DNA of 27,544 nt from a virus. Lineage: Duplodnaviria; Caudoviricetes. Shown here in pieces: positions 1-24,156 of this stretch; positions within the stretch are counted from its first letter, which is position 1, and each line of letters begins with the position of its first letter. A program made the translations under genes and the position numbers. The notes below the pieces were generated by a model. It worked only from the letters and a program-made list of their open reading frames with translations. It made no database searches and was not told the DNA's origin. Location of the stretch: IMG/VR virus record IMGVR_UViG_3300020042_005156, positions 1-27,544 of that record. One strand, given 5' to 3'.

Positions 1-1419
1 GAAGGCCGCAACGAGCTCAACAAATTGTTGGTTGGTGTAGAAAACGGCAGCGTCACATCAGAGCAGGTCGGTGCCAAGATTAAAGCCATGTCAGACGGCT
101 TCTTTCCTAAAGCGCTGGCAAGCAGTGACCCGGAAGCCTCAATTAAGTTTCGCGCCACTATGGCCACGCACGGCAACACCGTGCTCAACGCCGCCTACAA
201 GGCCGAGCTAGAAAGAGCCAAGAATCAGCGCATTGCCAAGTTTGACGCTGACTTTGACAACAGTATCAGATTGCTGGAGGCAACGGTATCGCAAGGCAGT
301 TTTACAGACTCAACCGGCCAAGTGCGATCTATTGATGAGCTCGCAGATGTGTTCCGCAAGAATGTGCTGACTCAATCCCTGCTGCTTGGCGACAAGGCTT
401 TGCAGACCGGCTACAGCACTAAGTTTGAGGTGGCACTGCGCACGGCAAAGGTCAACGCTGTAACCAAGGCGCTGATGTCTGATGCCAACATGGCTGACCC
501 AGAGAAGACGCTGGCCAAGCTAAAGGCTGGCGACCTAGGCAACATGAGCCCGGTGCTGCAATCCATAATCACCAATGACTTTGAGTCGGTGGCCAAGGTG
601 ACTGCCAACTTTATGGTGGCCGTCAACAACCGCAAGTCGATCAAGGATGCCAAGATAGCAGATGAGAAGCGGGTTACCGAGGGCCAGGCAATCAACCTGC
701 TTGAGCAGATCTTCCCGCTGCCGGAGAACAGCCCCAAGCGCAAAGCGCTGATTAGCGAGCTGATTGCTTTGCCACCGGGCTCGGTGCCTATTGGCATCCT
801 CAAAGATGTGCTAGAGCCAAAGCCAGCCAAAGAAGCTGAGTCCAACCAGGGCATCCTTTTCAATTTGATTGATGGCATCTACAACAACACCATTACCGAC
901 TCATCTCAGATCAAGGCATTGGTTGGCAAAGGCATCACCGGCAAAGATGCTGTATCGGCTCTTAAGCTGCTACAAAGCGACAACAAGAGCGACAGCTCTC
1001 AGCTTGAGCGCGGCATCTCCCAGCTTGCTGGCATCCCAGTAATCTCTGGCAGCGTGGTGGTGCTCGACCCCAAGGGCGATGAGTTTAAGCGCCGCAAAGA
1101 ACTGCAAGCCGAGGCATTTCAGATTCAGTCAGAGGCTGCACTTAAAGGCACAACCCTGTCGCCGCGCCAGATCTTGACCCAGCTTGAAGACAACATTGCC
1201 AAACGCCGGAGCAGTGCAGATGCCCAGGCCGCACAGAAGGCGCTGGCTGAGTTTGCCAAAGGCCCAGACGGCAAGTACAAGTCAGGCCGTGATTGGATCA
1301 CAGGGCCGGTGACTGAAGAAAATTTACCCGCCCTGCGTCAAAAGGCTGGCAATGATGCTGCCAAGATGCGACAAATTATTCAGCTTGAAGAGCTGCTCAA
1401 GAGAGCGCGAGGAAACTAA
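1..1419 (+). CDS. Putative internal virion (ejected/core) protein, 5'-truncated
   Basis: Frame is open from base 1 to TAA at 1417-1419. Long helical Ala/Lys/Leu-rich protein, first of three large genes before the tail fibre, the usual position of podovirus ejection proteins. Confidence 0.6.
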   Translation, partial: EGRNELNKLLVGVENGSVTSEQVGAKIKAMSDGFFPKALASSDPEASIKFRATMATHGNTVLNAAYKAELERAKNQRIAKFDADFDNSIRLLEATVSQGSFTDSTGQVRSIDELADVFRKNVLTQSLLLGDKALQTGYSTKFEVALRTAKVNAVTKALMSDANMADPEKTLAKLKAGDLGNMSPVLQSIITNDFESVAKVTANFMVAVNNRKSIKDAKIADEKRVTEGQAINLLEQIFPLPENSPKRKALISELIALPPGSVPIGILKDVLEPKPAKEAESNQGILFNLIDGIYNNTITDSSQIKALVGKGITGKDAVSALKLLQSDNKSDSSQLERGISQLAGIPVISGSVVVLDPKGDEFKRRKELQAEAFQIQSEAALKGTTLSPRQILTQLEDNIAKRRSSADAQAAQKALAEFAKGPDGKYKSGRDWITGPVTEENLPALRQKAGNDAAKMRQIIQLEELLKRARGN

Positions 1420-1421
1420 GC

Positions 1422-4277
1422 ATGGCCTACAGCCCTATTGAAGACAAGTACCTGTCGGCACTGACTGCCATGCAATTCCCGGATGAGCCGGTTGAGGTGG
1501 CCATGCCTGAGCAAACAGCCCCAGGCAGGCAACCTGGTGATGTGCTGCTGGCCGCTGGGCCCAGCACAACCATGACAGACGCAGGGCCGGGCGTGCGTAC
1601 TGGGCGCGGCGGCGTTCAATTACGGTCACCAAGCATGCGTGATATTACCGAGCCAGCCATGGGCATGGCCGATATGTTGGCGGCTACCGGCAAGGGTCTG
1701 GTTCAAGGCTTTGTTGGGTTGCCTGGCGAGGTTGAGGCAATTAGCTATGGCGTCAAGGAAATATTTAATCGCGGGGCTGGTGAGGGCATGCTAGATGCAT
1801 TCTTGCGCGGCTTTCAAGGCGGCACAATATTGCCGAAGACTGAAGAAGTCAAGAAGTGGCTGGATCAAAATGTCGGTACGGTTGGCGGTGGCAAGGTGCC
1901 GTATGAGTCTATTGGTGAAGTAGTTGCACCTGGTGGCCAAATCAAAGCTGTAAAAGCTGGTGCTGCTGGCGTAAAGGCTCTGGTCAGAGAAACAGGCTCT
2001 CAGCTTGACCGCGCCATGATGGAGGGCACCGGGCCTCTGTCGGGTCTGGTGCCGCCGGGTGCTCGGCCAATGTTCGCTGTTGATCCTGGGTCTGTGCAAT
2101 TAAACCGCCAAGAAAAAGCCGTGATCAGTGCTGGCGCTGGCCGCAAAAAACAAGTGCGAGAAGAAGCCACCAAACTTGCTACAGACATGAAGGCCAACTA
2201 TGCAGAAGCAGATGGTTGGGCACCAATTGAAATTAACAAGGTTGAGCAAAAACTTGACAAAGCAGGCAAGTTTGTAAAAGTTGAAATTGAGCCCAAGGCT
2301 ATATCGTATGACTTCCATACGCCGCCAGCAGATGTGCCGGTTGAGGCGTGGCAGGCCACAATGTCCTCGCGTGTTTTAGATGAGGTGCAGACCGTTGTTG
2401 ACAGAGCTGCTGCCGGTGATCAAGCCGCTCTAGATATCTTGGCAGAAGCCAGTTGGTATCGAACCATGCGCGACAGACTGCGCACAGAGTTTGGTGGCAT
2501 TGGTGATGTGTTTGCTGATGTCTTAGGTACAACCTCTGCGCAAACAGATGTGCGTCAAAACTTCAAGAACGCAGTGGCAGTTCTTACAAAGTTCAGCCGT
2601 GGCGATTACGACAAAACGCTGGCGGCTTACGAGTCAAGGGTCGCCAAGGGTCAGCCTGTTGACGCAAAAACACTGGGCGAATTAGATGCCGCTGGAACCT
2701 TTGATTTGATCAAAAGTGATGCTGGCAAGTTGTTCAACACAAACAGCCCGGCGACCATGGGCGCATTGCTGGACATGTTCCGCGCCATAAAGGCAGGTGA
2801 CTCTCCAAAGACGCCAAACTTCACAGGCAATTTGATTGGCCTGACCAATGAAGCAACCATCGATGTGTGGGCTGCTAGGATGCTGCGCCGATTGGCTGAC
2901 TTGCCAAGAATACCGCCACCGGCAGAAAAAGGTGTCGGCGGCGCACACACCAAAGGCTCAACATTATTTGAGCCACAAGTCAGTGGTGAGTTTGGGTTTG
3001 GCCAGGATGTGTTTAGAGAAGCGGCTGACGAAATCAACAAAAGCGGCATCATTAAAAACATTGCGCCAGACATTGGCGATCTTGGCCCAGATGACCTTCA
3101 AGCTGTTGCATGGTTCATTGAAAAAGAAAAGTGGACAAACAGCGGCTGGACAACAAAAGCCGGTGAAGGCGGCTCGCTTGATTACGAGATGTCTTTGGCG
3201 GGTGCGGCTGATCCAGGTCGCATCAGTGAGTTGCGCAAGGGGATCAACAAGTCATTCCAAGCTCCGGCACGGCGCAAGGGCGAATTGGAAATGGGCGAGC
3301 AGGCTTACGCATATCGGATGCAACCTTTGCGGAAGCAAGACCTTGAAAACAAAGAGGCCATGCGGCAAGAGCTTTTGCAGTCCAAAGCCAGCGTTGATCG
3401 GTACACGCTTGGCGTTTCTGGCGAGCGCCCAGACAAGCCAATGAGCAACTATGGCCAGGCCGAGCTGGCTGCTGAGTTTGATGATGTTGTTCGCAATGAC
3501 CCGAGTGTCGTTACCTACAATTTGTCAAACACTTATGGATCATTTATGGGCGGCACTGAACGAGCCCTTAACGCTGAGTTCATTACCAAACAGAACTTTG
3601 TGCCCACTGCGCTTGAGCGCCGCATGGTTGAGCAAGGCAAAGCCTACGACCAAGACGCTGTGTTTATTTCAAAAGTGGTCAAAGACAGCGCAGCACCAAA
3701 CGCTCGGCCAGGTGTGGAAATTTACTTTAAGGAAAAAATCACCCCTGAGAAAATGGCGGCTGTTACGGCAAAGCTGCGCGAATACGGTGTTGATGGGTTT
3801 ACCTATGTGACCGACATGCGCTTCAGTGACCGCATCAATGTGCAAGCCCGAGCTGGTGGCGCTGAGACTGCTGGCCTTAATGGCTTGCGTTTTCAGTACA
3901 TCCCAGAATTTGATGACGGATTTAATCAGGCCAATCGATCAGCAATAATGGCTGAAAAACAACGCTTGTTTGATAAAGTGGTTGAGGATATGATTGGCGA
4001 GGGAAATGTGTCTGATGCCCGTACCGTTTTCTATGACACAAAAGTCTATTTTAGGAGTGATTACGATGCTTACCTTGGAAGAACTACTCAAGGAGCGAGT
4101 GCAACGCCTGGGTCAAGATCATCCAGCGGTGCAGATGTTGCGCAACCAGATAACAGCGGAGAAGTCGGGAAAGACTTTTCAAGAGCTGTATCTGACCGGC
4201 TCCGTAAAAAAGCAGCCAGCAGCAAACCCGCAGCAGTAAACAGGGGCGGCACCGCTCCGCAATCTGGAGCTAAGTGA
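1422..4277 (+). CDS. Large multidomain internal virion protein (951 aa) with HhH-GPD glycosylase-like and SAM-lyase-like cargo domains
   Basis: ATG at 1422 after GAGGA. Gly/Ala-rich amphipathic N-terminus, then motifs TTSAQTDV, KTPNF...TIDVWAAR, LQAVAW (EndoIII-like) and YTLGVSGER...GSFMGGTE...YDQDAVF (SAMase-like). Lies between two other large virion genes. Confidence 0.7.
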   Translation: MAYSPIEDKYLSALTAMQFPDEPVEVAMPEQTAPGRQPGDVLLAAGPSTTMTDAGPGVRTGRGGVQLRSPSMRDITEPAMGMADMLAATGKGLVQGFVGLPGEVEAISYGVKEIFNRGAGEGMLDAFLRGFQGGTILPKTEEVKKWLDQNVGTVGGGKVPYESIGEVVAPGGQIKAVKAGAAGVKALVRETGSQLDRAMMEGTGPLSGLVPPGARPMFAVDPGSVQLNRQEKAVISAGAGRKKQVREEATKLATDMKANYAEADGWAPIEINKVEQKLDKAGKFVKVEIEPKAISYDFHTPPADVPVEAWQATMSSRVLDEVQTVVDRAAAGDQAALDILAEASWYRTMRDRLRTEFGGIGDVFADVLGTTSAQTDVRQNFKNAVAVLTKFSRGDYDKTLAAYESRVAKGQPVDAKTLGELDAAGTFDLIKSDAGKLFNTNSPATMGALLDMFRAIKAGDSPKTPNFTGNLIGLTNEATIDVWAARMLRRLADLPRIPPPAEKGVGGAHTKGSTLFEPQVSGEFGFGQDVFREAADEINKSGIIKNIAPDIGDLGPDDLQAVAWFIEKEKWTNSGWTTKAGEGGSLDYEMSLAGAADPGRISELRKGINKSFQAPARRKGELEMGEQAYAYRMQPLRKQDLENKEAMRQELLQSKASVDRYTLGVSGERPDKPMSNYGQAELAAEFDDVVRNDPSVVTYNLSNTYGSFMGGTERALNAEFITKQNFVPTALERRMVEQGKAYDQDAVFISKVVKDSAAPNARPGVEIYFKEKITPEKMAAVTAKLREYGVDGFTYVTDMRFSDRINVQARAGGAETAGLNGLRFQYIPEFDDGFNQANRSAIMAEKQRLFDKVVEDMIGEGNVSDARTVFYDTKVYFRSDYDAYLGRTTQGASATPGSRSSSGADVAQPDNSGEVGKDFSRAVSDRLRKKAASSKPAAVNRGGTAPQSGAK
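4066..4239 (+). CDS. Small overprinted protein (57 aa) nested out of frame in the 3' end of the 951-aa gene
   Basis: AGGAG at 4053-4057, ATG at 4066. Product MLTLEELLKERVQRLGQDHPAVQMLRNQITAEKSGKTFQELYLTG... looks helical and globular, while the host frame becomes low-complexity Ser/Gly/Ala over the same span. Confidence 0.55.
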   Translation: MLTLEELLKERVQRLGQDHPAVQMLRNQITAEKSGKTFQELYLTGSVKKQPAANPQQ

Positions 4278-7156
4278 TGGCCATTGAACAGAAGTCCCTT
4301 GATCAACGGCTTGGCCAGATCCTGCCCGGTGCCGCGCCCAGCACGCCTGCCGAAGACATCCCGCTGGAGCCCATGCCTGCGGCTGGCCCAGCCGACACAA
4401 CTGAGATGCCCGAGGTCGCTGAGATCGGCACCCCTTCCATGGAGGAGGGTGTCCAGGTCGCAGGCCCAATAGATGCCGCCCTGCGCAAGCTGATCACCCG
4501 GCAGGCCACCAAGGCCGAGCGCAACCTGGTGCCAGACGCTGCCCGAGCTCTGCCGGGCGAGCTGCCCGATGCTGCCAAGGCTGGCCGCTTTAAGCTGATC
4601 CCCGAGGCTGACCAAATCCTGACTGATGAGGTTGGCCGTGCGGTCAGTCGCAGGCAGACCTTTGGCATCACCGAGGGTAAACCCGGTGGTACACCTGACG
4701 AGCCGTTTAACCTGTCCCGCTACCAGACCGAGGATGCCGCTGCCATTGTGGGCGGCGTGGCTGATGCGCTGAACATTCGCACCAAGGCGGTCACCTTTCA
4801 AGAGATCAAGGACAAGGCCGCTGAGTCGGGCATTGGCGAGGCTTTCCTGTCCCGCCTGATTGGCACCGATGGCAAGATGATGGCCAACGCTGTCGAGACC
4901 TACAAAGCGCTGGAGGTGCTGGAGTCCAGCGCCAACGAGCTGGATCGCCTGTTTAAGATGGTCAACAGTGGAACAGCCACCGATGTGGACAAGCTGGTGC
5001 TGCGCCAGCAGATCGCCTTCCACGGCCTGATCCAGCGCGGTGTCAAGGGCATCCAGACCGAGACCGCCAGGTCGCTGGCTGTGTTTCGCATTCCCCGTGA
5101 TGGCAACGCTGCCATTGTGCGGCAAGTGATCGACGAATACGGTGGTGACAAAAGCCTGTCTGATCTGGCCAAGTCCTACCTGACATTGGAGTCTCGAGCT
5201 GAACAGAACAAGCTGGTTGAGAAGTCAATGATGTCGAGCGTGAAAGATGTGTGGTTTAGCACCTTCATCAACGGGCTGCTGTCGTCACCAAAAACACATG
5301 TTCTTAATATTGCATCAAACAGCAGTTTTGGTTTGTATCAAATACCAGAGCGTGCGGTTGCCTCTCTGTATTCAAAATATTTACCAGCAAGTGTGCGCGA
5401 GGGACGCATGCCCAATGTCATCACAAAATGGGGTGATCTTTTACCTGGTAGCGCTGACGAAAAAATTGCACTTGACGAAGCGTTGACCATGATCCAGTCG
5501 CTTCGCAATGGATTCTTTGAAGGATTGCAGTTGGCAAGCACTGCGTTTAGAAAGAATCAGCCCAGCGATCTGATGAGCAAGATTGAGGCACAGCGCGGCA
5601 ATACTGTCCCAGCGATCAGTTCCGCAGGTTTTGGCATTGAGCAGGACAAGTGGTTTGGCAAGGCCATCGACTACTATGGCGCGGCTGTCACCCTGCCGGG
5701 TCGGATGCTGTTAACTGAGGATGAGTTTTTTAAGGGCGTGCTCTATCGCATGGAGTTCAACACCTTGGTTACCCGGCGCAGCAAAAAGGTCTACCGCGAT
5801 TCGCTGGACGCTGGCATGCCAGAAGCAGATGCCTTGGCCAAGGCCGAGGCAGAGACCATCAGCCTATTTGAAAACCCGCCAAGAGATCTTGACGAAGCTG
5901 CATCCCTGTTTGCACAGAAGGGCACTTTTACTGCCGAGCTGCCGCCAGTGCTTAGATCATTGCAGAAAGCGTTTAGTAATCCTGTGCTGAAAATAATGCA
6001 GCCGTTTTTCAAAACACCCGCCAACATTGGTTTACAGGTTGTTGAGCGCAGTCCCTTTGCGCCGCTGTCAAGCCAGTGGCGTGAAGAGATCGCCAAGGGT
6101 GGCGTGTACCGCGACATGGCCTTAGCCAAGGTAACGCTGGGCAGCACCATCATGGCCACCTTTGCGCTGCTGGCTGCCGAGGGAAAAATTACCGGCAGCG
6201 GCCCGGCCAAAAAAGAAGATCGAGACGCGCTTGAGCGTACCGGATGGAAACCGTATTCATTCAAGCCAGGCGACACCTACTACAGCTATAGCGGTATGGA
6301 GCCCATCTCTGCAATGATTGGTATTGCCTCAGATTACAACGAGTACGCCCAGCGCGAAACGGACGACAGCAAGATTGAAGAAGTGTTTCTTGGTTCTGTC
6401 TTTGGCATGTATGAATACCTAGCAGAGCAGCCTTACTTGCAAGGCATTGCTGACATGGCTGCATTGCTTGGGTTTGGAAAAAAAGGTCAAGAGCTTGATA
6501 TTAAGAAAACAATTGACAATGCATTTAAGCAATTGGGCGGCTTTGTAATTGGCGGTTCACCGGCTGGTGTTTACAGCTCTTTGTTTGCTGCTACTGAGCG
6601 GATGGTCGATCCAACAAATCGTGACCCTCGCGCCAACCCAGAGTTGCCCATGGGTGTTCGCGGCTTTATGGAATCTTTTAATAGGTACAAATCACGCCTG
6701 CCTTATTTCAATGCAGACTTGCCAGAAGAATTAAATCTCTGGGGTGATCCAATGAAGTCGGGCACGGGTGCAGTTTATGAAATGTTTTTGCCAACCAAGG
6801 TTTCACCAGAGCAGTTTTCTGAAGTCGATGATTTACTTGTACGCATAATTTCACCAATAGGAAAACCAGATCGCAAGATCGATGGTGTTGAATTAAACGC
6901 AGTGCAATACAACCGATTGATCACGATCTACGGAAAAGAGCTGCCATCCAAAGATCAAATTCTTGCCACCATGCAGACACCTGGCTTTGACAGACTGTTG
7001 CGTAAAGACCAACAAAAGTATGTGCAAGGCGTGCATAGCAAATACATGGACATGGCAAGAAAACAACTACTTACAGAATATCCAGAGATACAAGTAAAAA
7101 TTGACGAGCGTGAAGAGTTAAAAAATGATCGCGTGAACTTTTACAAACCCGATTAA
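4277..7156 (+). CDS. Large internal virion protein (T7 gp16-like ejection protein), about 959 aa
   Basis: ATG overlaps the upstream stop (TGATG) after GGAG. Contains the GWKPYSF...YYSYSGMEP segment typical of the last podovirus internal virion protein; immediately precedes the tail fibre. Confidence 0.7.
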   Translation: MAIEQKSLDQRLGQILPGAAPSTPAEDIPLEPMPAAGPADTTEMPEVAEIGTPSMEEGVQVAGPIDAALRKLITRQATKAERNLVPDAARALPGELPDAAKAGRFKLIPEADQILTDEVGRAVSRRQTFGITEGKPGGTPDEPFNLSRYQTEDAAAIVGGVADALNIRTKAVTFQEIKDKAAESGIGEAFLSRLIGTDGKMMANAVETYKALEVLESSANELDRLFKMVNSGTATDVDKLVLRQQIAFHGLIQRGVKGIQTETARSLAVFRIPRDGNAAIVRQVIDEYGGDKSLSDLAKSYLTLESRAEQNKLVEKSMMSSVKDVWFSTFINGLLSSPKTHVLNIASNSSFGLYQIPERAVASLYSKYLPASVREGRMPNVITKWGDLLPGSADEKIALDEALTMIQSLRNGFFEGLQLASTAFRKNQPSDLMSKIEAQRGNTVPAISSAGFGIEQDKWFGKAIDYYGAAVTLPGRMLLTEDEFFKGVLYRMEFNTLVTRRSKKVYRDSLDAGMPEADALAKAEAETISLFENPPRDLDEAASLFAQKGTFTAELPPVLRSLQKAFSNPVLKIMQPFFKTPANIGLQVVERSPFAPLSSQWREEIAKGGVYRDMALAKVTLGSTIMATFALLAAEGKITGSGPAKKEDRDALERTGWKPYSFKPGDTYYSYSGMEPISAMIGIASDYNEYAQRETDDSKIEEVFLGSVFGMYEYLAEQPYLQGIADMAALLGFGKKGQELDIKKTIDNAFKQLGGFVIGGSPAGVYSSLFAATERMVDPTNRDPRANPELPMGVRGFMESFNRYKSRLPYFNADLPEELNLWGDPMKSGTGAVYEMFLPTKVSPEQFSEVDDLLVRIISPIGKPDRKIDGVELNAVQYNRLITIYGKELPSKDQILATMQTPGFDRLLRKDQQKYVQGVHSKYMDMARKQLLTEYPEIQVKIDEREELKNDRVNFYKPD

Positions 7157-7189: not shown

Positions 7190-9469
7190 ATGGCCATCCC
7201 AATCAGCAATGTCACCCGCCGAACAGTCTACGCACCCAGCGGCGCTGGTGGCGCTGGCCCCTATGCGTTTACTTTTGAGATCCTGGCCAACACTGACATT
7301 GCCGTTTTCAAAGATGACACGCTGCTGACGCTGACCACCCACTACACGGTGAGCATTGCAGCCAACGGCACGGGCTCGGTGACCATCACGGCAGCAGGCT
7401 TGGCGCTGGCTCCTGTGTCTCCAACCCAGTACGCAATTGTCGGCAACCGCGCTATCAGCCGGTCTACTGACTTCACAACCGGTGGTGACTTCTTTGCCAA
7501 CACGCTCAATGATGAGCTCGATCAGCAGACCATCTTTGCCCAGCAGAATGCCGAGGGTGTTACCCGTGCATTGCAGGCACCACAGACCGACCCGACCACG
7601 GTGGACATGACCCTGCCCCGAGCATCTGTCCGGGCCAACAAGACGCTGGCCTTTGATGCCAACGGCGACCCCACCACGGGCGAGGTGATCGGTGACAACC
7701 GTGGCAACTGGGCGGCTGGTGTTGCGTACAACAAGCGCGACATTGTCAAGGACACAAGCAACGGCAATGTCTACTATGCGAACACCAGCCACACATCCTC
7801 TGGCTCACAGCCAATCAGCACCAACGCTGACAGCGCCAAGTGGGATCTGATTGTTGACAACGCATCAGCAACAACCTCGGCCACCAACGCTGCTGCATCA
7901 GCCTCTGCTGCGTCTACCAGCGCAAGCAATGCATCGACATCAGCCACCAACGCAGCCAGCTCTGCCAGCACGGCCAGCACCCAAGCCAGCAATGCGAGCA
8001 CCTCGGCTACCAATGCGGCATCCAGCGCAAGCGCAGCATCCAGCTCGGCCAGCACCGCAAGCACCGCTGCGACCAACGCTGGCACCTCGGCCACCGCAGC
8101 CTCAACCAGCGCAACGAGTGCCAGCAGCAGCGCCACATCAGCGAGCGGGTCTGCCAGCACTGCAACGACACAGGCCAGCAACGCCAGCACATCAGCGACC
8201 GCTGCTGCGGCATCAGCGAGCACGGCCACTACGCAGGCCACCAACGCAGCAACCTCTGCCTCGGGTGCCAGCACCTCGGCATCAAATGCAAGCACCTCGG
8301 CCAGCAACGCATCAGCCAGTGAAACGGCTGCTGCCGCATCTGCTGCATCTGCTGCTGCCAGCTTTGATGCGTTTGATGACATCTACCTGGGTGCCAAGGC
8401 AAGCGATCCCACTGTTGACAATGACGGCAACGCGCTGACCACTGGCGACCAGTACTTCAACACCACAGCCAATGAGCTGCGCGTGTACAACGGCAGCACT
8501 TGGCAGGCAGCATCCACTGTTGGCGGCACTGTGACCAACCTCACGGTCACCAACGGCGCAACCATCCAAGGCCTCACAGTAGGCCGTGGCGCGGGTGCTG
8601 TGTCTACGAATACGGCGGTGGGTGCGAGTGCTTTGGTGGCGAATACAACGGGTGACGAGAACGTGGGGGTTGGTCATACCGCTCTTACAGTTACTACTAC
8701 CGGCTCTGGGAACACTGCCGTTGGCTCGCGCACAATGCGATTAAATACGACTGGCAACTTTAACTCCTCCCTTGGTTACGCCACACTTATTGCAAATACA
8801 ACAGGTGCTAACAATGTTGCAGTAGGAGCATCGGCTCTTCAGTTCAACACCACAGCCTCAAACAACACCGCTGTGGGTTATCAGGCGGGGTATAGCAATA
8901 CAACCGGAACATACAACCTGTTCATGGGTTATATAACGGGGCAATCAAACACCACTGGGTCGCAGAACACTTTTGTTGGTGGCCTTGGTGCTGGCAATGC
9001 CGTTACAACTGGCGGCAAACACACAATCATCGGCAACTACTCAGGCAACAACGGTGGCCTCGACATCCGCACTGCCAACAACTACATCGTCTTGAGCGAT
9101 GGGGATGGGAATCCACGGGGGTATTTTGACAACAACGGAAGACTAACTCTTGCAGGTACCGTTGCAATTTCGGTTGCTCCTGGAACGTACACACTTGATA
9201 CTTCTGCAACTGGAACTTCTATTGCCAATGGCGGCACAGTTAATTACTCAAACTCATCTGGTTTTTTAATTGTAAATAATTGGAGTCAAGGCTCTGTTGG
9301 TATATGGCTGATGGGTGGGGGTCAAACTGCGCTTGTTTCCAATGTTGGAGGCGTTGGGCTAGGAGCCATTGCATACAACGCTGGTATTAATGGCTACACA
9401 TGGACAAACACTTACGGCGCAACTGGTATATTTGATTTTGTCTTTATCCGCACTCGTACTGGCGCGTAA
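7190..9469 (+). CDS. Tail fibre / receptor-binding protein (759 aa)
   Basis: T7 gp17-like N-terminal anchor (GPYAFTFEIL...TLTTHYTV...LNDELDQ), RGNWAAGVAYNKRDIV module, long Ser/Ala/Thr repeat stalk, YLGAKASDPTVDNDG...YFNT module, NTAVG/NTTG beta-helix repeats, divergent C-terminal tip. Confidence 0.9.
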   Translation: MAIPISNVTRRTVYAPSGAGGAGPYAFTFEILANTDIAVFKDDTLLTLTTHYTVSIAANGTGSVTITAAGLALAPVSPTQYAIVGNRAISRSTDFTTGGDFFANTLNDELDQQTIFAQQNAEGVTRALQAPQTDPTTVDMTLPRASVRANKTLAFDANGDPTTGEVIGDNRGNWAAGVAYNKRDIVKDTSNGNVYYANTSHTSSGSQPISTNADSAKWDLIVDNASATTSATNAAASASAASTSASNASTSATNAASSASTASTQASNASTSATNAASSASAASSSASTASTAATNAGTSATAASTSATSASSSATSASGSASTATTQASNASTSATAAAASASTATTQATNAATSASGASTSASNASTSASNASASETAAAASAASAAASFDAFDDIYLGAKASDPTVDNDGNALTTGDQYFNTTANELRVYNGSTWQAASTVGGTVTNLTVTNGATIQGLTVGRGAGAVSTNTAVGASALVANTTGDENVGVGHTALTVTTTGSGNTAVGSRTMRLNTTGNFNSSLGYATLIANTTGANNVAVGASALQFNTTASNNTAVGYQAGYSNTTGTYNLFMGYITGQSNTTGSQNTFVGGLGAGNAVTTGGKHTIIGNYSGNNGGLDIRTANNYIVLSDGDGNPRGYFDNNGRLTLAGTVAISVAPGTYTLDTSATGTSIANGGTVNYSNSSGFLIVNNWSQGSVGIWLMGGGQTALVSNVGGVGLGAIAYNAGINGYTWTNTYGATGIFDFVFIRTRTGA
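7860..8362 (+). repeat. Degenerate Ser/Ala/Thr heptad-like coding repeats (e.g. ASTSATNAASS) forming the tail fibre stalk
   Basis: Recurring gccagcac/gccaccaacgc units, in frame with the fibre gene; resembles lambda Stf-type stalks. Confidence 0.8.
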
Positions 9470-14445: not shown

Positions 14446-14525
14446 ACAGGCATCCAGATCAGCAGGACAACGCAAGCCACGAACAGCGCGGCTACGGTGA
14501 TTTTTTCGAACAGGGTTTCATGCAT
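14442..14525 (-). CDS. Single-TM micropeptide (27 aa, MHETLFEKITVAALFVACVVLLIWMPV)
   Basis: GGAG RBS; overlaps the recombinase stop and the next ATG; absent from the ORF track because of its size. Confidence 0.55.
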   Translation of the reverse strand: MHETLFEKITVAALFVACVVLLIWMPV

Positions 14526-15192
14526 TGTTGTACTCCAGGTTGAGGCGTTTCAGAAGGTTGGAGGCCTGAGTTGGCCCCCAGGTCACATTGCCACGGGGTG
14601 TGGCCACGCCGCGAGCCTCGAGCGCTGCGGCAATGTCTCTTAGGGTGCTGGCACCAGACCGGGCGATGATGTCGCGCACGATTGGGCCAACACGGTCAGC
14701 GTACTTGTCGGCCTTGACCATGATGGCCTTGACACCGATGACCGAGCCGATCAGTGGTGTTGGGCAGCCCAGGGTGCGGCCTTGGGCTTTGACCTGGGCC
14801 AGCGCGGCCTTGGTGCGGTCGGAGATCTTGCGGGCCTCCCACTCAGCGAACACGGCCATCATCTGCAAGAAGGTGCGGTCAGCCTCGGGCATGTCAGCGC
14901 AGACAAAGGGCACGCCGGACTCCAGCAGGCCGGAGATGAAATGGACATTGCGGGCCAAGCGGTCGAGCTTGGCGATCACCAGCATGGCCTTGGCCTTCTT
15001 GGCGGTGGCCAGGGCGGCGGCCAGCTGCTCACGGTCATTCTTGCGGCCGGACTCGATCTCAGTGAACTCAGCGACCAGCTCGGCAGCGCCGATGTGCTTG
15101 GCCACGGCGGCACGCTGGGCATCCAGGCCAAGGCCAGACTGGCCCTGGCGGTCAGTGGAGACCCGGTAGTAGGCAACGAATTTGGTGGTCAT
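14518..15192 (-). CDS. Small serine recombinase (resolvase/invertase family) with C-terminal DNA-binding domain
   Basis: YYRVSTDRQ with catalytic Ser, ESGR, AKLDRLARN, FAEWEARKISDRTKAALA, GRTLG, then TLRDIAAALEARG. Confidence 0.93.
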   Translation of the reverse strand: MTTKFVAYYRVSTDRQGQSGLGLDAQRAAVAKHIGAAELVAEFTEIESGRKNDREQLAAALATAKKAKAMLVIAKLDRLARNVHFISGLLESGVPFVCADMPEADRTFLQMMAVFAEWEARKISDRTKAALAQVKAQGRTLGCPTPLIGSVIGVKAIMVKADKYADRVGPIVRDIIARSGASTLRDIAAALEARGVATPRGNVTWGPTQASNLLKRLNLEYNNA

Positions 15193-15193
15193 C

Positions 15194-15409
15194 TTAAGCA
15201 CCTTTACCAGCAAAAGCTAAACGCTCAAGGTAAGCATCCTTGCCAGCCAAAAAGGTTCTCTGTGCCCATGCATAAGCCAGACCAAATTGATTGAACTCTC
15301 CGACAATGCGGCCATCAATCCAAACCATGTAGTGGTTTTTGCCGAAGTGCTCGACCTTGACGGCAAAGCCGGTGGCCTTGCTATGCAGTAGGGTAGTTTT
15401 GTTTGCCAT
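15194..15409 (-). CDS. Hypothetical early protein (71 aa)
   Basis: AGGAG RBS before ATG 15409; first gene of the leftward operon; more AT-rich than its neighbours. Confidence 0.7.
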   Translation of the reverse strand: MANKTTLLHSKATGFAVKVEHFGKNHYMVWIDGRIVGEFNQFGLAYAWAQRTFLAGKDAYLERLAFAGKGA

Positions 15410-21775: not shown

Positions 21776-23329
21776 ATGTCTAGGACAAAAGAAACATCAG
21801 TGAAATCAGTCCCTGTCGGCGGGCTTAACCTGGACTTCAGCGAGTCCCCGGTGATCTACGACTTTATCCAGTCCAAGAACTTTGTCCAAGGCATCATGGG
21901 CCCAGTGGGCTCCGGCAAGAGCTATGGCTGCGCGGCCAAGATCTTCATCAAGGCCGTGCAACAAAAGCCCTCGGCCATTGACAACATCCGGTATTCGCGC
22001 TGGGCCATTGTGCGAAACAGCTACCCCATGTTGAAGACCACCACCATTAAGACTTGGTTGGATCTGTTTCCAGAGGCCACCTTCGGCCAGATGCTGTGGA
22101 CACCGCCCATTACCCACCACATCCGGCTGCCGGCCCGGGGTGATGCGGCCGGCATTGACTGCGAGGTCATCTTCCTGGCCCTTGACCAGCCCAAGGATGT
22201 GCGCAAACTGCTGTCCCTTGAGCTCACCGGTGCCTGGGTGAACGAGGCCCGGGAGCTGCCCAAGGCGGTGATCGACGGTCTGACCCACCGGGTTGGCCGA
22301 TACCCGACCAAGCGGGACGGCGGGGCCACATGGCACGGGATCTGGATGGATACCAACCCGATGGACGATGACCACTGGTGGCACCGCATGGCAGAAAAGG
22401 AGAAGATGACCGGCCAGTATGCGTGGAAGTTCTTCAAGCAGCCCGGCGGCGTGGTGCCCGTGGATGTTGAAGATTTGCCCGACATGCCGGAGGCCAACGA
22501 TCACATCTTTGCGTCCGGCAAGTGGTGGAAGGTCAACCCCAAAGCTGAGAACATCAACAACTTGCCGGCCGGCTACTACCAGCAGATGCTGCTCGGCAAG
22601 AACCTGGACTGGATTCGCTGCTACGCCGGGGGCGAGTACACCTATGTGCAGGAAGGCAGGCCTGTCTGGCCCGAGTATGAGGACTCGACCATGTCCGGCG
22701 ACACTGAAATTGACCCCAATGTGCCCATCCAGGTGGGGCTTGACTTCGGTTTGACCCCGGCGGCCACCATTGGACAGCGGTTGCCCAATGGCCGGTGGCT
22801 GATTCACCAGGAAATCGTCACCTTTGACATGGGCCTGGAGCGCTTTGGCACCCAATTGCTGGCCGAGCTCAATCAGCGCTACCCGAACCACCAGGTTATG
22901 GTCTGGGGCGACCCTGCCGGCATGGCCCGAGACACCATATATGAGGTCACCGCCTTTGATTACCTCAAAACACTGGGGCTACGGGCCCAGCCCACGGCCA
23001 GCAATGACTTCAAGGTGCGCCGCGAGGCCTCGGCAGCGCCCATGCAGCGACTGATCACCGGCAAGCCTGGGCTCATCATCAACCGCGACTGCAAACTGCT
23101 GCGCAAAGCGCTGGCCGGTGGCTATCACTTCAAGCGGATCGCTGTCGGGGCTGGCCAAGAGCGCTTTCGGGACGCACCAAACAAGAACGAGCACTCGCAC
23201 ATTGGCGACTCATTCGGCTATTTGATGCTGGGCGGCGGCGAGTACAACCGGATGACCCGCACCCACCAGCTCGGCGGCAGACCCATGGGCCAAGCCAGCG
23301 CTGGGACTGACTTTGATGTGTTTGCCTGA
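21776..23329 (+). CDS. terL: Terminase large subunit
   Basis: Walker A GPVGSGKS, Walker B WVNEARE, DTNP coupling motif, nuclease motifs GLDFG and HIGDSFGY. Confidence 0.95.
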   Translation: MSRTKETSVKSVPVGGLNLDFSESPVIYDFIQSKNFVQGIMGPVGSGKSYGCAAKIFIKAVQQKPSAIDNIRYSRWAIVRNSYPMLKTTTIKTWLDLFPEATFGQMLWTPPITHHIRLPARGDAAGIDCEVIFLALDQPKDVRKLLSLELTGAWVNEARELPKAVIDGLTHRVGRYPTKRDGGATWHGIWMDTNPMDDDHWWHRMAEKEKMTGQYAWKFFKQPGGVVPVDVEDLPDMPEANDHIFASGKWWKVNPKAENINNLPAGYYQQMLLGKNLDWIRCYAGGEYTYVQEGRPVWPEYEDSTMSGDTEIDPNVPIQVGLDFGLTPAATIGQRLPNGRWLIHQEIVTFDMGLERFGTQLLAELNQRYPNHQVMVWGDPAGMARDTIYEVTAFDYLKTLGLRAQPTASNDFKVRREASAAPMQRLITGKPGLIINRDCKLLRKALAGGYHFKRIAVGAGQERFRDAPNKNEHSHIGDSFGYLMLGGGEYNRMTRTHQLGGRPMGQASAGTDFDVFA

Positions 23330-23706: not shown

Positions 23707-24156
23707 ATGCCTTTTTATATTGCAGCGGCCATCATTGGCAGCACCGCATACACCGCCAACCAAGCTCGCAAGTCACGCCAGCAGGCTGAGAACGATCAGC
23801 GCACCATGCTGGCGCAGCAGCAATCTGACCAGGCTGCCATGCGGCTTGAGCTGGGCAAGCAAACCGCCGAGTACGCCAAGCAGGGTGCCTCACTTGAGCA
23901 GCAGGCCCAGACCGCTCGGCAGCAGTTTGAGCAGTCTCAATTGCAATACAAGGCCAACAAGCTGGAAATGGAGCAGAAGTCGAAGGAAGTGCAAGCAGCC
24001 GCTGATGAAGAGCGCCGCAAAGCTGCTGCCGCCGAGGCCTCTGCCCTCAGAGCTCGCACCCGTGGTGGTCGCCGGTCGCTGCTGTCGGGTGAGCGCATGG
24101 ATGCCGAGCTCGGCGTTATGGCTGACCTCAACAGTCCTGGCATGAGGTTGCAGTAA
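23707..24156 (+). CDS. Hypothetical coiled-coil virion-associated protein (149 aa)
   Basis: Hydrophobic N-terminus, Gln/Ala coiled coil, GRRSLLS motif seen in podovirus pre-portal proteins. Confidence 0.7.
   Translation: MPFYIAAAIIGSTAYTANQARKSRQQAENDQRTMLAQQQSDQAAMRLELGKQTAEYAKQGASLEQQAQTARQQFEQSQLQYKANKLEMEQKSKEVQAAADEERRKAAAAEASALRARTRGGRRSLLSGERMDAELGVMADLNSPGMRLQ

Follow-up and report, generated by a model that had tools for sequence, protein, structure and literature searches.

A predicted HhH-GPD glycosylase-like domain paired with a putative SAM lyase in a candidate ejection protein of a tailed phage

Why would a tailed phage carry a domain resembling a base-excision enzyme inside a large protein encoded among its virion genes? 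This question is raised by IMGVR_UViG_3300020042_005156, a 27.5-kb virus record of the Caudoviricetes, taken whole (hereafter the window; 27,544 nucleotides, ~83% complete). An open reading frame (ORF) at 1422-4277 encodes a protein of 951 amino acids (aa). In its middle, an initial annotation had proposed a glycosylase/lyase domain akin to endonuclease III (EndoIII, Nth), which would be injected and could repair damaged packaged DNA, remove host-installed base adducts, or attack host DNA. Our analysis indicates a predicted HhH-GPD fold with near-invariant, putatively catalytic residues, closer to the OGG enzymes than to EndoIII, and followed in nearly all homologues by a second domain, possibly an S-adenosylmethionine (SAM) lyase.

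The residues singled out by the initial annotation are located where it placed them: S372/Q374, K463, D481, and the helix at 559-564 all lie in this ORF, and the motifs it cited for Escherichia coli Nth agree with the S39, Q41, K120, and D138 read from NC_000913.3. Fe-S cysteines are absent, as it had noted; indeed, the 951-aa protein contains 0 Cys. The 18-residue spacing between K463 and D481, described there as intact catalytic spacing, is also present, but we rejected it as stand-alone evidence, since it is at chance level in a protein with six K-x17-D pairs. Conservation is observed directly. The family comprises at least 807 clusters at 50% identity, detected with a 38-sequence profile, and we aligned the 150 best-scoring of these, which represent the nearer fifth of the family. 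Across these diverse homologues, K463 is retained in 150/150 and D481 in 149/150. The two occur together in 149/150, while the other four K-x17-D pairs in the aligned region are found in 1, 3, 32, and 32 of the 150. Position 374 is variable, with Asn in 87 homologues and Gln in 54. The conserved unit is larger than initially described: it begins at about aa 260, within an N-terminal extension (aa 240-334) with conserved W266, Y296, F298, and R328, and behind it lies another conserved domain, at aa 655-888 (domain 2). In our judgment, the glycosylase-like domain (domain 1) is very probably an active enzyme.

The AlphaFold2 (AF2) model of aa 240-595, built from 69 sequences, had a predicted local distance difference test score (pLDDT) of 93.4 and a predicted template modeling score (pTM) of 0.89, with pLDDT ranging from 92.5 to 93.4 across the five models, and it retains the helix-loop-helix geometry. 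When compared with 48,161 solved chains using VIA-align, proteins with the HhH-GPD fold, as judged from entry titles, filled ranks 1-22 (Z 8.3 to 4.3, 148-215 residues aligned), and the first unrelated chain appeared at Z 4.2. The top match was the OGG2 enzyme Tm1821 (3N0U; root-mean-square deviation (rmsd) 4.5, 184 residues aligned). Further matches included MagIII and EndoIII-1 (Z 6.8), human OGG1 (6.7), ROS1 (6.5), AGOG (6.2), and E. coli Nth (5.8). The individual Z scores are modest, and the strength of the prediction lies in the unbroken HhH-GPD block at ranks 1-22, which suggests that aa ~335-590 adopt this fold. The initial annotation was thus right about the fold and the Lys/Asp register, but not about EndoIII as the nearest kind: the OGG2/AGOG/OGG1 branch is closer, with Nth (2ABK) at rank 12. 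We rejected an EndoIII identity on three counts, namely the lack of an Fe-S motif (the C-terminal 4Fe-4S cysteine motif is present in 0/150 homologues), the lower structural rank, and a pocket that appears to be of the purine type, as opposed to the pyrimidine-type pocket of Nth. What the window domain shares with E. coli Nth is the Ser-x-Gln motif and, through stand-alone relatives, the Lys/Asp register.

A Foldseek search against viral models detected the domain in many large phage proteins as well as in stand-alone proteins of ~200 aa. The domain probably belongs to the DUF7178 group (PF23802/phrog_3842). The window copy matches this family weakly (24.8 bits, cut-off 27; Atlas 0.96), and 17 of the 32 large homologues scanned, which were picked for length out of the 150, reach the 27-bit cut-off. 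A profile comparison between the domain and six stand-alone DUF7178 proteins was highly significant (probability 97.4, E 1.2e-11), and the stand-alone profile in turn aligned with 30 OGG2 sequences from archaea (probability 73.8, E 2.9e-5; reversed control 0.24). In this alignment, the Lys and Asp residues of the two sets coincide and Gln-x3-Trp faces Asp-x3-Trp, placing the predicted register on an OGG2 reference tied to 3FHF/3KNT/3N0U, where the Lys concerned is the residue replaced by Gln in 3KNT. The stand-alone proteins align with Nth in the same Lys/Asp register, ungapped, although weakly (E 0.015). More direct sequence searches were unproductive: PDB sequence searches with domain 1 and its profiles matched no glycosylase, Pfam Ogg-HhH and NCBIfam scans of the domain found no match, and a tblastn search of 50,697 phage records with the window domain as the query returned nothing at E 0.01. 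A distant homologue used in the same way gave only matches at E 0.2-0.6, to genes annotated "glycosylase".

We found stand-alone DUF7178 genes in 162 phage records, and small versions are found in cultured mycobacteriophages, cyanophages, and roseophages. Some are annotated as "glycosylase", "DNA glycosylase", or "N-glycosylase", for example gp76 of mycobacteriophage MK4, gp113 of Shagrat, and gp115 of Kumao, respectively, which belong to the same family as the window domain by profile. These GenBank labels are predictions. The stand-alone proteins have the same WY, Lys, Asp, and Gln-x3-Trp motifs as the window domain. They are, however, single-domain proteins of ~190-230 aa encoded near genome ends, whereas the window domain is larger, fused to domain 2, and part of a virion module. 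All six of the stand-alone genes that we examined in cultured phages lie within ~2.5 kb of a record end; genome ends are the usual place of early genes.

Which base could such an enzyme recognize? According to PMC9638937, AGOG sandwiches 8-oxoguanine (8-oxoG) between F146, four residues after the catalytic Lys, and W212, with D208 among the reading residues. In OGG2, a Trp stacks on the base where human OGG1 has F319, as described in PMC13490550, and a title cited there calls Q315 and F319 pocket residues. The window domain has F467 at Lys+4, and its Q560 and W564, one turn apart on the modeled helix 556-574, align with the OGG2 Asp/Trp. Because F467, Q560, and W564 match these AGOG/OGG pocket residues, we infer by analogy that a guanine-type pocket has been kept, and we lean toward a guanine-type base as the target. 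The domain is OGG/AGOG-like rather than Nth-like; it likely works as OGG does yet belongs to neither OGG2 nor Nth. With OGG2 (Tm1821 3N0U; MjOgg 3FHF/3KNT; SsoOgg 3FHG), it shares the Lys/Asp pair 18 apart in register, a C-terminal helix with a polar residue four before the Trp, and the absence of an Fe-S cluster. It differs from OGG2 in its low identity (11%), its missing GxG hairpin, a Trp rather than His at Asp+2, a helical insertion, an N-terminal beta-hairpin extension, and its location inside a phage virion-module protein without a free C-terminus. AGOG (Pab/Pae) has the same Phe at Lys+4 and the same Trp with a polar residue four before it, but aligns at lower structural Z (6.2, 4.3) and has a Lys-Asp spacing of 32 (K142/D174), and no counterpart of AGOG Q24 was identified in the window domain.

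The OGG-like pocket and the OGG2 top match would fit ordinary repair, in which an injected 8-oxoG glycosylase mends oxidized packaged DNA and has no anti-defense role; oxidation of DNA in free virions is plausible. However, OGG2 separates 8-oxoG from G by its extreme C-terminal residue (PMC9638937, PMC13490550), and here the chain runs ~380 aa beyond W564, leaving no free C-terminus for such sensing unless the protein is proteolytically cleaved. Repair would also leave unexplained the near-constant fusion to domain 2 and the company of ART, Acb1, and InPase domains in large homologues, both described below. Furthermore, bacterial hosts usually carry MutM. We consider this explanation rather unlikely.

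The linkage between the two domains is a direct observation. Domain 2 is present in 142 of the 150 representatives, always downstream of domain 1 and within 152 aa, and the other eight proteins end 0-190 aa after domain 1, mostly too early for domain 2 to fit. Of 80 close viral loci, 79 likewise have it behind domain 1, with the remaining one ending at a contig edge, and the same holds for 18 of 20 genome-contig loci; L106 and, apparently, L093 are without it, and one further locus, with only a 33-residue match, was left out. Some variation exists: in L051:2465-3013, domain 2 is ~50 aa shorter, and in L102 and L108 the match is confined to its second half. The model of domain 2 (pLDDT 88.8) consists of tandem predicted ferredoxin-like folds. 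The listed Foldseek matches, to tandem ferredoxin-like monooxygenase/dismutase folds, had an rmsd of 11-19 Å and were rejected as reflecting topology only.

Three weak signals point to a SAM lyase. First, domain 2 has Atlas neighbors with PF23780 (0.85, 176 shared features). Second, VIA-align placed 6ZM9, the phage SAM lyase Svi3-3, at rank 4 (Z 7.0, 111/129 aligned), among generic ferredoxin folds. Third, E713 (130/135), E719 (135/135), and Q744 (135/135) are conserved. Svi3-3 requires a Glu, and the catalytic Glu is E69 in Svi3-3 and E68 in the T3 enzyme (PMC7877911). Domain 2 may resemble phage SAM lyases (Svi3-3 6ZM9, T3 SAMase; PMC7877911) in its predicted ferredoxin-like fold, in which one Glu is near-invariant and one Gln invariant, but differs from them as a tandem repeat fused behind a predicted glycosylase and scoring below the Pfam cut-off. 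A PDB sequence search with domain 2 retrieved no SAM lyase. Whether domain 2 acts as a SAM lyase seems to us evenly poised. The genomic surroundings of the stand-alone forms provide independent support for a glycosylase/SAM-lyase pairing: a SAM-lyase-like gene lies near the stand-alone DUF7178 gene in two of the five cultured phages whose neighbors were scanned, directly upstream in S-CBP2 (E 0.003) and three genes downstream in Panino (E 4.6e-6).

Two further observations concern these neighborhoods. Panino CDS17 (L144:2841-3191) is annotated "SAM-dependent methyltransferase", yet matches S-AdoMet_lyase at 27 bits against a cut-off of 28, and is likely misannotated. In CRP-1, a gene of the Phage_L5_gp82 family (L143:2783-3190) is located three genes from the stand-alone DUF7178 gene, and the same family is weakly detected in module proteins of L064 and L068, making it a possible third partner.

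Gene context, also observed directly, bears on how the protein might reach the host. Close relatives share a gene order of capsid, a ~660-730-aa gene (presumably the tail tube), a ~580-aa gene, the counterpart of the 951-aa ORF, a ~950-aa gene, and tail fiber; in locus L013, the capsid gene is upstream of the module gene. By its position, the 951-aa ORF would be an internal virion or ejection protein, and the "structural protein" label that it received in the initial annotation likewise reflects gene position. From the same evidence, the module protein is probably packaged and injected together with the DNA. Family scans of the upstream ORF (1..1419), including NCBIfam, gave no notable match. 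In L017:4861-7611, the gene is apparently split into ORFs of 380 and 531 aa, the second of which carries both domains, which suggests that the module can exist separately from the N-terminal part of the protein.

Many homologues are considerably larger than the window protein: 114 of the 150 have at least 1000 aa and 49 at least 2000 aa, and the hosts of the module include polyvalent proteins of 2-4 thousand aa. Polyvalent or anti-defense domains were detected in 22 of the 32 large homologues (13/13 in a first set and 9/19 in a second), including LPD22/37/38/39, ART-PolyVal, InPase, MuF_C, Zeta, RadC, and Acb1; one close viral locus adds a GNAT domain. No radical-SAM association was seen in any of these 32. 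With their LPD, ART-PolyVal, InPase, and MuF_C domains among virion genes, the large homologues are polyvalent proteins in the sense of Iyer et al. 2017 (PMC5512222). The window ORF itself combines two enzyme-like domains, that is, disparate effector domains in one virion-module protein. The main text of PMC5512222 does not contain "glycosylase", "endonuclease III", or "base excision", while its supplements may list the domain. Separately, we observed the module at >70% identity in proteins of 1000-2100 aa from another phage architecture (L058-L080, for example L070-L078), some with ART-PolyVal or GNAT; in L076, the module protein comes directly after the terminase. Given this identity across architectures, the cassette may recently have moved from one virion protein to another.

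The explanation that we favor, tentatively and at clearly less than an even chance, is that domain 1 is an injected modified-guanine glycosylase/lyase acting on the phage's own incoming DNA as an early counter-defense, while domain 2 drains SAM. In this scenario, the protein would enter the host with the genome, and the pair would help phage DNA to survive host defenses in the first minutes. By analogy with characterized enzymes, the modified base would flip into a pocket between F467 and W564 and be read by Q560, D481 would activate the sugar, and K463 would form a Schiff base and nick the strand; host repair would then close the gap. The target would most likely be a mark or lesion that the phage DNA itself carries as it enters, and domain 2, if a SAM lyase, would deprive SAM-dependent defenses of their substrate. 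In a more specific version, which we regard as quite doubtful, the two enzymes would form a widespread injected cassette in which the glycosylase/lyase strips a host-installed, possibly SAM-dependent guanine mark and the SAM lyase stops further marking. If true, this would imply an undescribed bacterial defense that tags phage guanines, together with phage-side base excision.

Several results weigh against the favored explanation. No guanine-marking host system has been identified for these phages. On the structural side, the Z of 8.3 for 3N0U falls in a range that VIA-align terms ambiguous for helical proteins, and the Foldseek comparison proposed in the initial annotation found nothing at E<=0.001 for domain 1 in the PDB, although OGG2 3N0U did appear at rank 4 (E 1.1). 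Direct hhalign of the fused domain with OGG2 was not significant (E 0.057) and shifted K463 by one, and with Nth it failed. For domain 2, the Atlas and 6ZM9 signals are weak, 6ZM9 is not among the Foldseek matches listed, E713 aligns with a Glu of two stand-alone lyase-like genes at E 0.04-0.08 only, and Pfam S-AdoMet_lyase gave a best E of 0.13-0.18, with no match in the phage's own genome. The gene L093:8951-11509 apparently is without domain 2. Finally, the canonical GxG hairpin, which grips DNA, is found in just 1/150 homologues, the core is net acidic (29 K+R versus 36 D+E), and a queuine-salvage enzyme stands at VIA-align rank 2 (Z 7.0).

The missing hairpin and the acidic core weaken the case for DNA as the substrate and would suit an N-glycosidase for a free nucleotide, a tRNA base, or a signal molecule, either resembling queuine salvage or processing what domain 2 makes from SAM. 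A queuine-salvage enzyme works on a free nucleotide, and a second such enzyme is found at rank 15; the fusion would then represent a two-step pathway, and signal-degrading Acb1-type domains occur in the same giant proteins. Against this, the domain retains the predicted Schiff-base Lys, the Ser-x-Gln/Asn motif, and R486, all in common with members that act on DNA, and the stand-alone forms retain a reduced Gly-x-Lys hairpin, with Gly two before Lys in 5/6. We find this alternative quite unlikely and DNA the probable substrate of domain 1.

If DNA is the substrate, the enzyme could still be a weapon that fragments modified-guanine DNA of the host or of a co-infecting 7-deazaguanine phage. A precedent is bacterial Dag1, described in a preprint as a bifunctional enzyme of the HhH fold that degrades 7-deazaguanine DNA and in which K118, D184, and W188 (Asp-x3-Trp) are required (bioRxiv 10.1101/2025.10.29.685425). 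Dag1 and Dag2 share with the window domain a Lys plus a polar-x3-Trp spacing (Asp-x3-Trp in Dag) and combine an HhH fold with modified-guanine targets; however, they are bacterial defense genes, mostly in integrons, whereas the window domain would be phage-deployed, and the likeness is one of residue spacing taken from that preprint. Polyvalent domains may act against other parasites, as Iyer et al. suggest (PMC5512222). Among five near-complete relatives, QueC was found in 0/5 and N6/N4 methylase in 0/5, which makes either of these two modifications improbable in their DNA, and with QueC absent the phages would not be self-targets. For the host chromosome as the target, the genome argues otherwise: the scanned ORFs of this 83% complete record include an O-like initiator and a serine recombinase, but no DNA polymerase was found among them, and the phage, seemingly reliant on host replication, probably requires a host that still functions. 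Of the three functions initially proposed, an attack on the chromosome of the host thus looks the least likely for this phage, and the weapon explanation as a whole is unlikely.

The fold may instead have been reused, either for a base-modifying transferase similar to the phage aGPT-Pplase enzymes or for a non-catalytic domain that protects DNA. Phages do repurpose it, and the phage transferase PaMx11 gp46/PUGT is in the VIA-align list (rank 33, Z 3.8), but its score is well short of those of the glycosylases. The scanned window ORFs included no base-modification genes, in line with the results for the five relatives, and the invariant Lys/Asp argues for catalysis. We consider such reuse improbable. 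Table 1 lists the features of the module and its surroundings.

Table 1. Positions of the module, its predicted functional residues, and the adjoining large ORFs in the window
Feature	Position	Strand	Remarks
Upstream large ORF, 5' open	1..1419	+	Presumed first ejection protein
951-aa ORF with module	1422..4277	+	Second of three large genes, tail-tube region to tail fiber
N-terminal extension of glycosylase-like domain, aa 240-334	2139..2423	+	Helix, beta-hairpin, long helix; from conservation and model
Predicted HhH-GPD-fold, DUF7178-group domain, aa ~335-590	2424..3191	+	Helical insertion at ~aa 395-440
S372-x-Q374 motif	2535..2543	+	S 148/150; Q or N 141/150
K463, predicted Schiff-base nucleophile	2808..2810	+	150/150; opens model helix 463-472
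F467 (Lys+4), predicted base-stacking residue	2820..2822	+	148/150; compare AGOG F146
D481, predicted catalytic aspartate	2862..2864	+	149/150; caps model helix 482-491
Q560-x3-W564, predicted guanine-reading and stacking pair	3099..3113	+	Each 146/150, other 4 gaps
Second domain, aa 655-888, predicted tandem ferredoxin-like folds	3384..4085	+	First fold possibly SAM-lyase-like
Downstream 960-aa ORF	4274..7156	+	Internal virion protein family phrog_6651, E 7e-36

Ours is not the first glycosylase assignment for this group, as GenBank already labels some small relatives as glycosylases, while our literature search found no paper on "DUF7178" and no study of the domain family, most subscription papers being outside its scope. 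What is added here is the superfamily-wide structural support, the residue register obtained via the stand-alone forms, the putative pocket for a guanine-type base, and a count of how often the two domains are linked. DNA glycosylases have newly been recognized as bacterial antiphage weapons (Brig1, Dag), and a phage-delivered member would be their phage-side counterpart. DUF7178 thereby gains a testable function, and with small versions available in cultured phages, its substrate could be found with standard assays. That substrate would point to whichever host mark or lesion these phages have to remove or attack as they enter the cell, and an enzyme specific for a modified guanine could also be a useful reagent.

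Family scans of the remaining ORFs of the record identified, among others, a T7-type portal, a terminase, RecT/YqaJ, the O-like initiator, an endolysin, and the serine recombinase. The last is a 231-aa protein (14518-15213, minus strand) encoded beside RecT/YqaJ that matches the phrog_125 invertase (E 3e-33) and the phrog_95 integrase (E 2e-26), which raises the possibility of a temperate or plasmid-like phage. A 149-aa ORF (23707-24156, plus strand) downstream of the full-length terminase gene (21776-23329) shows a weak Terminase_6C match (E 0.001). The tail fiber (7190-9469, plus strand) matches CBM_5_12 weakly and contains a long repeat region rich in Ala, Ser, and Thr.

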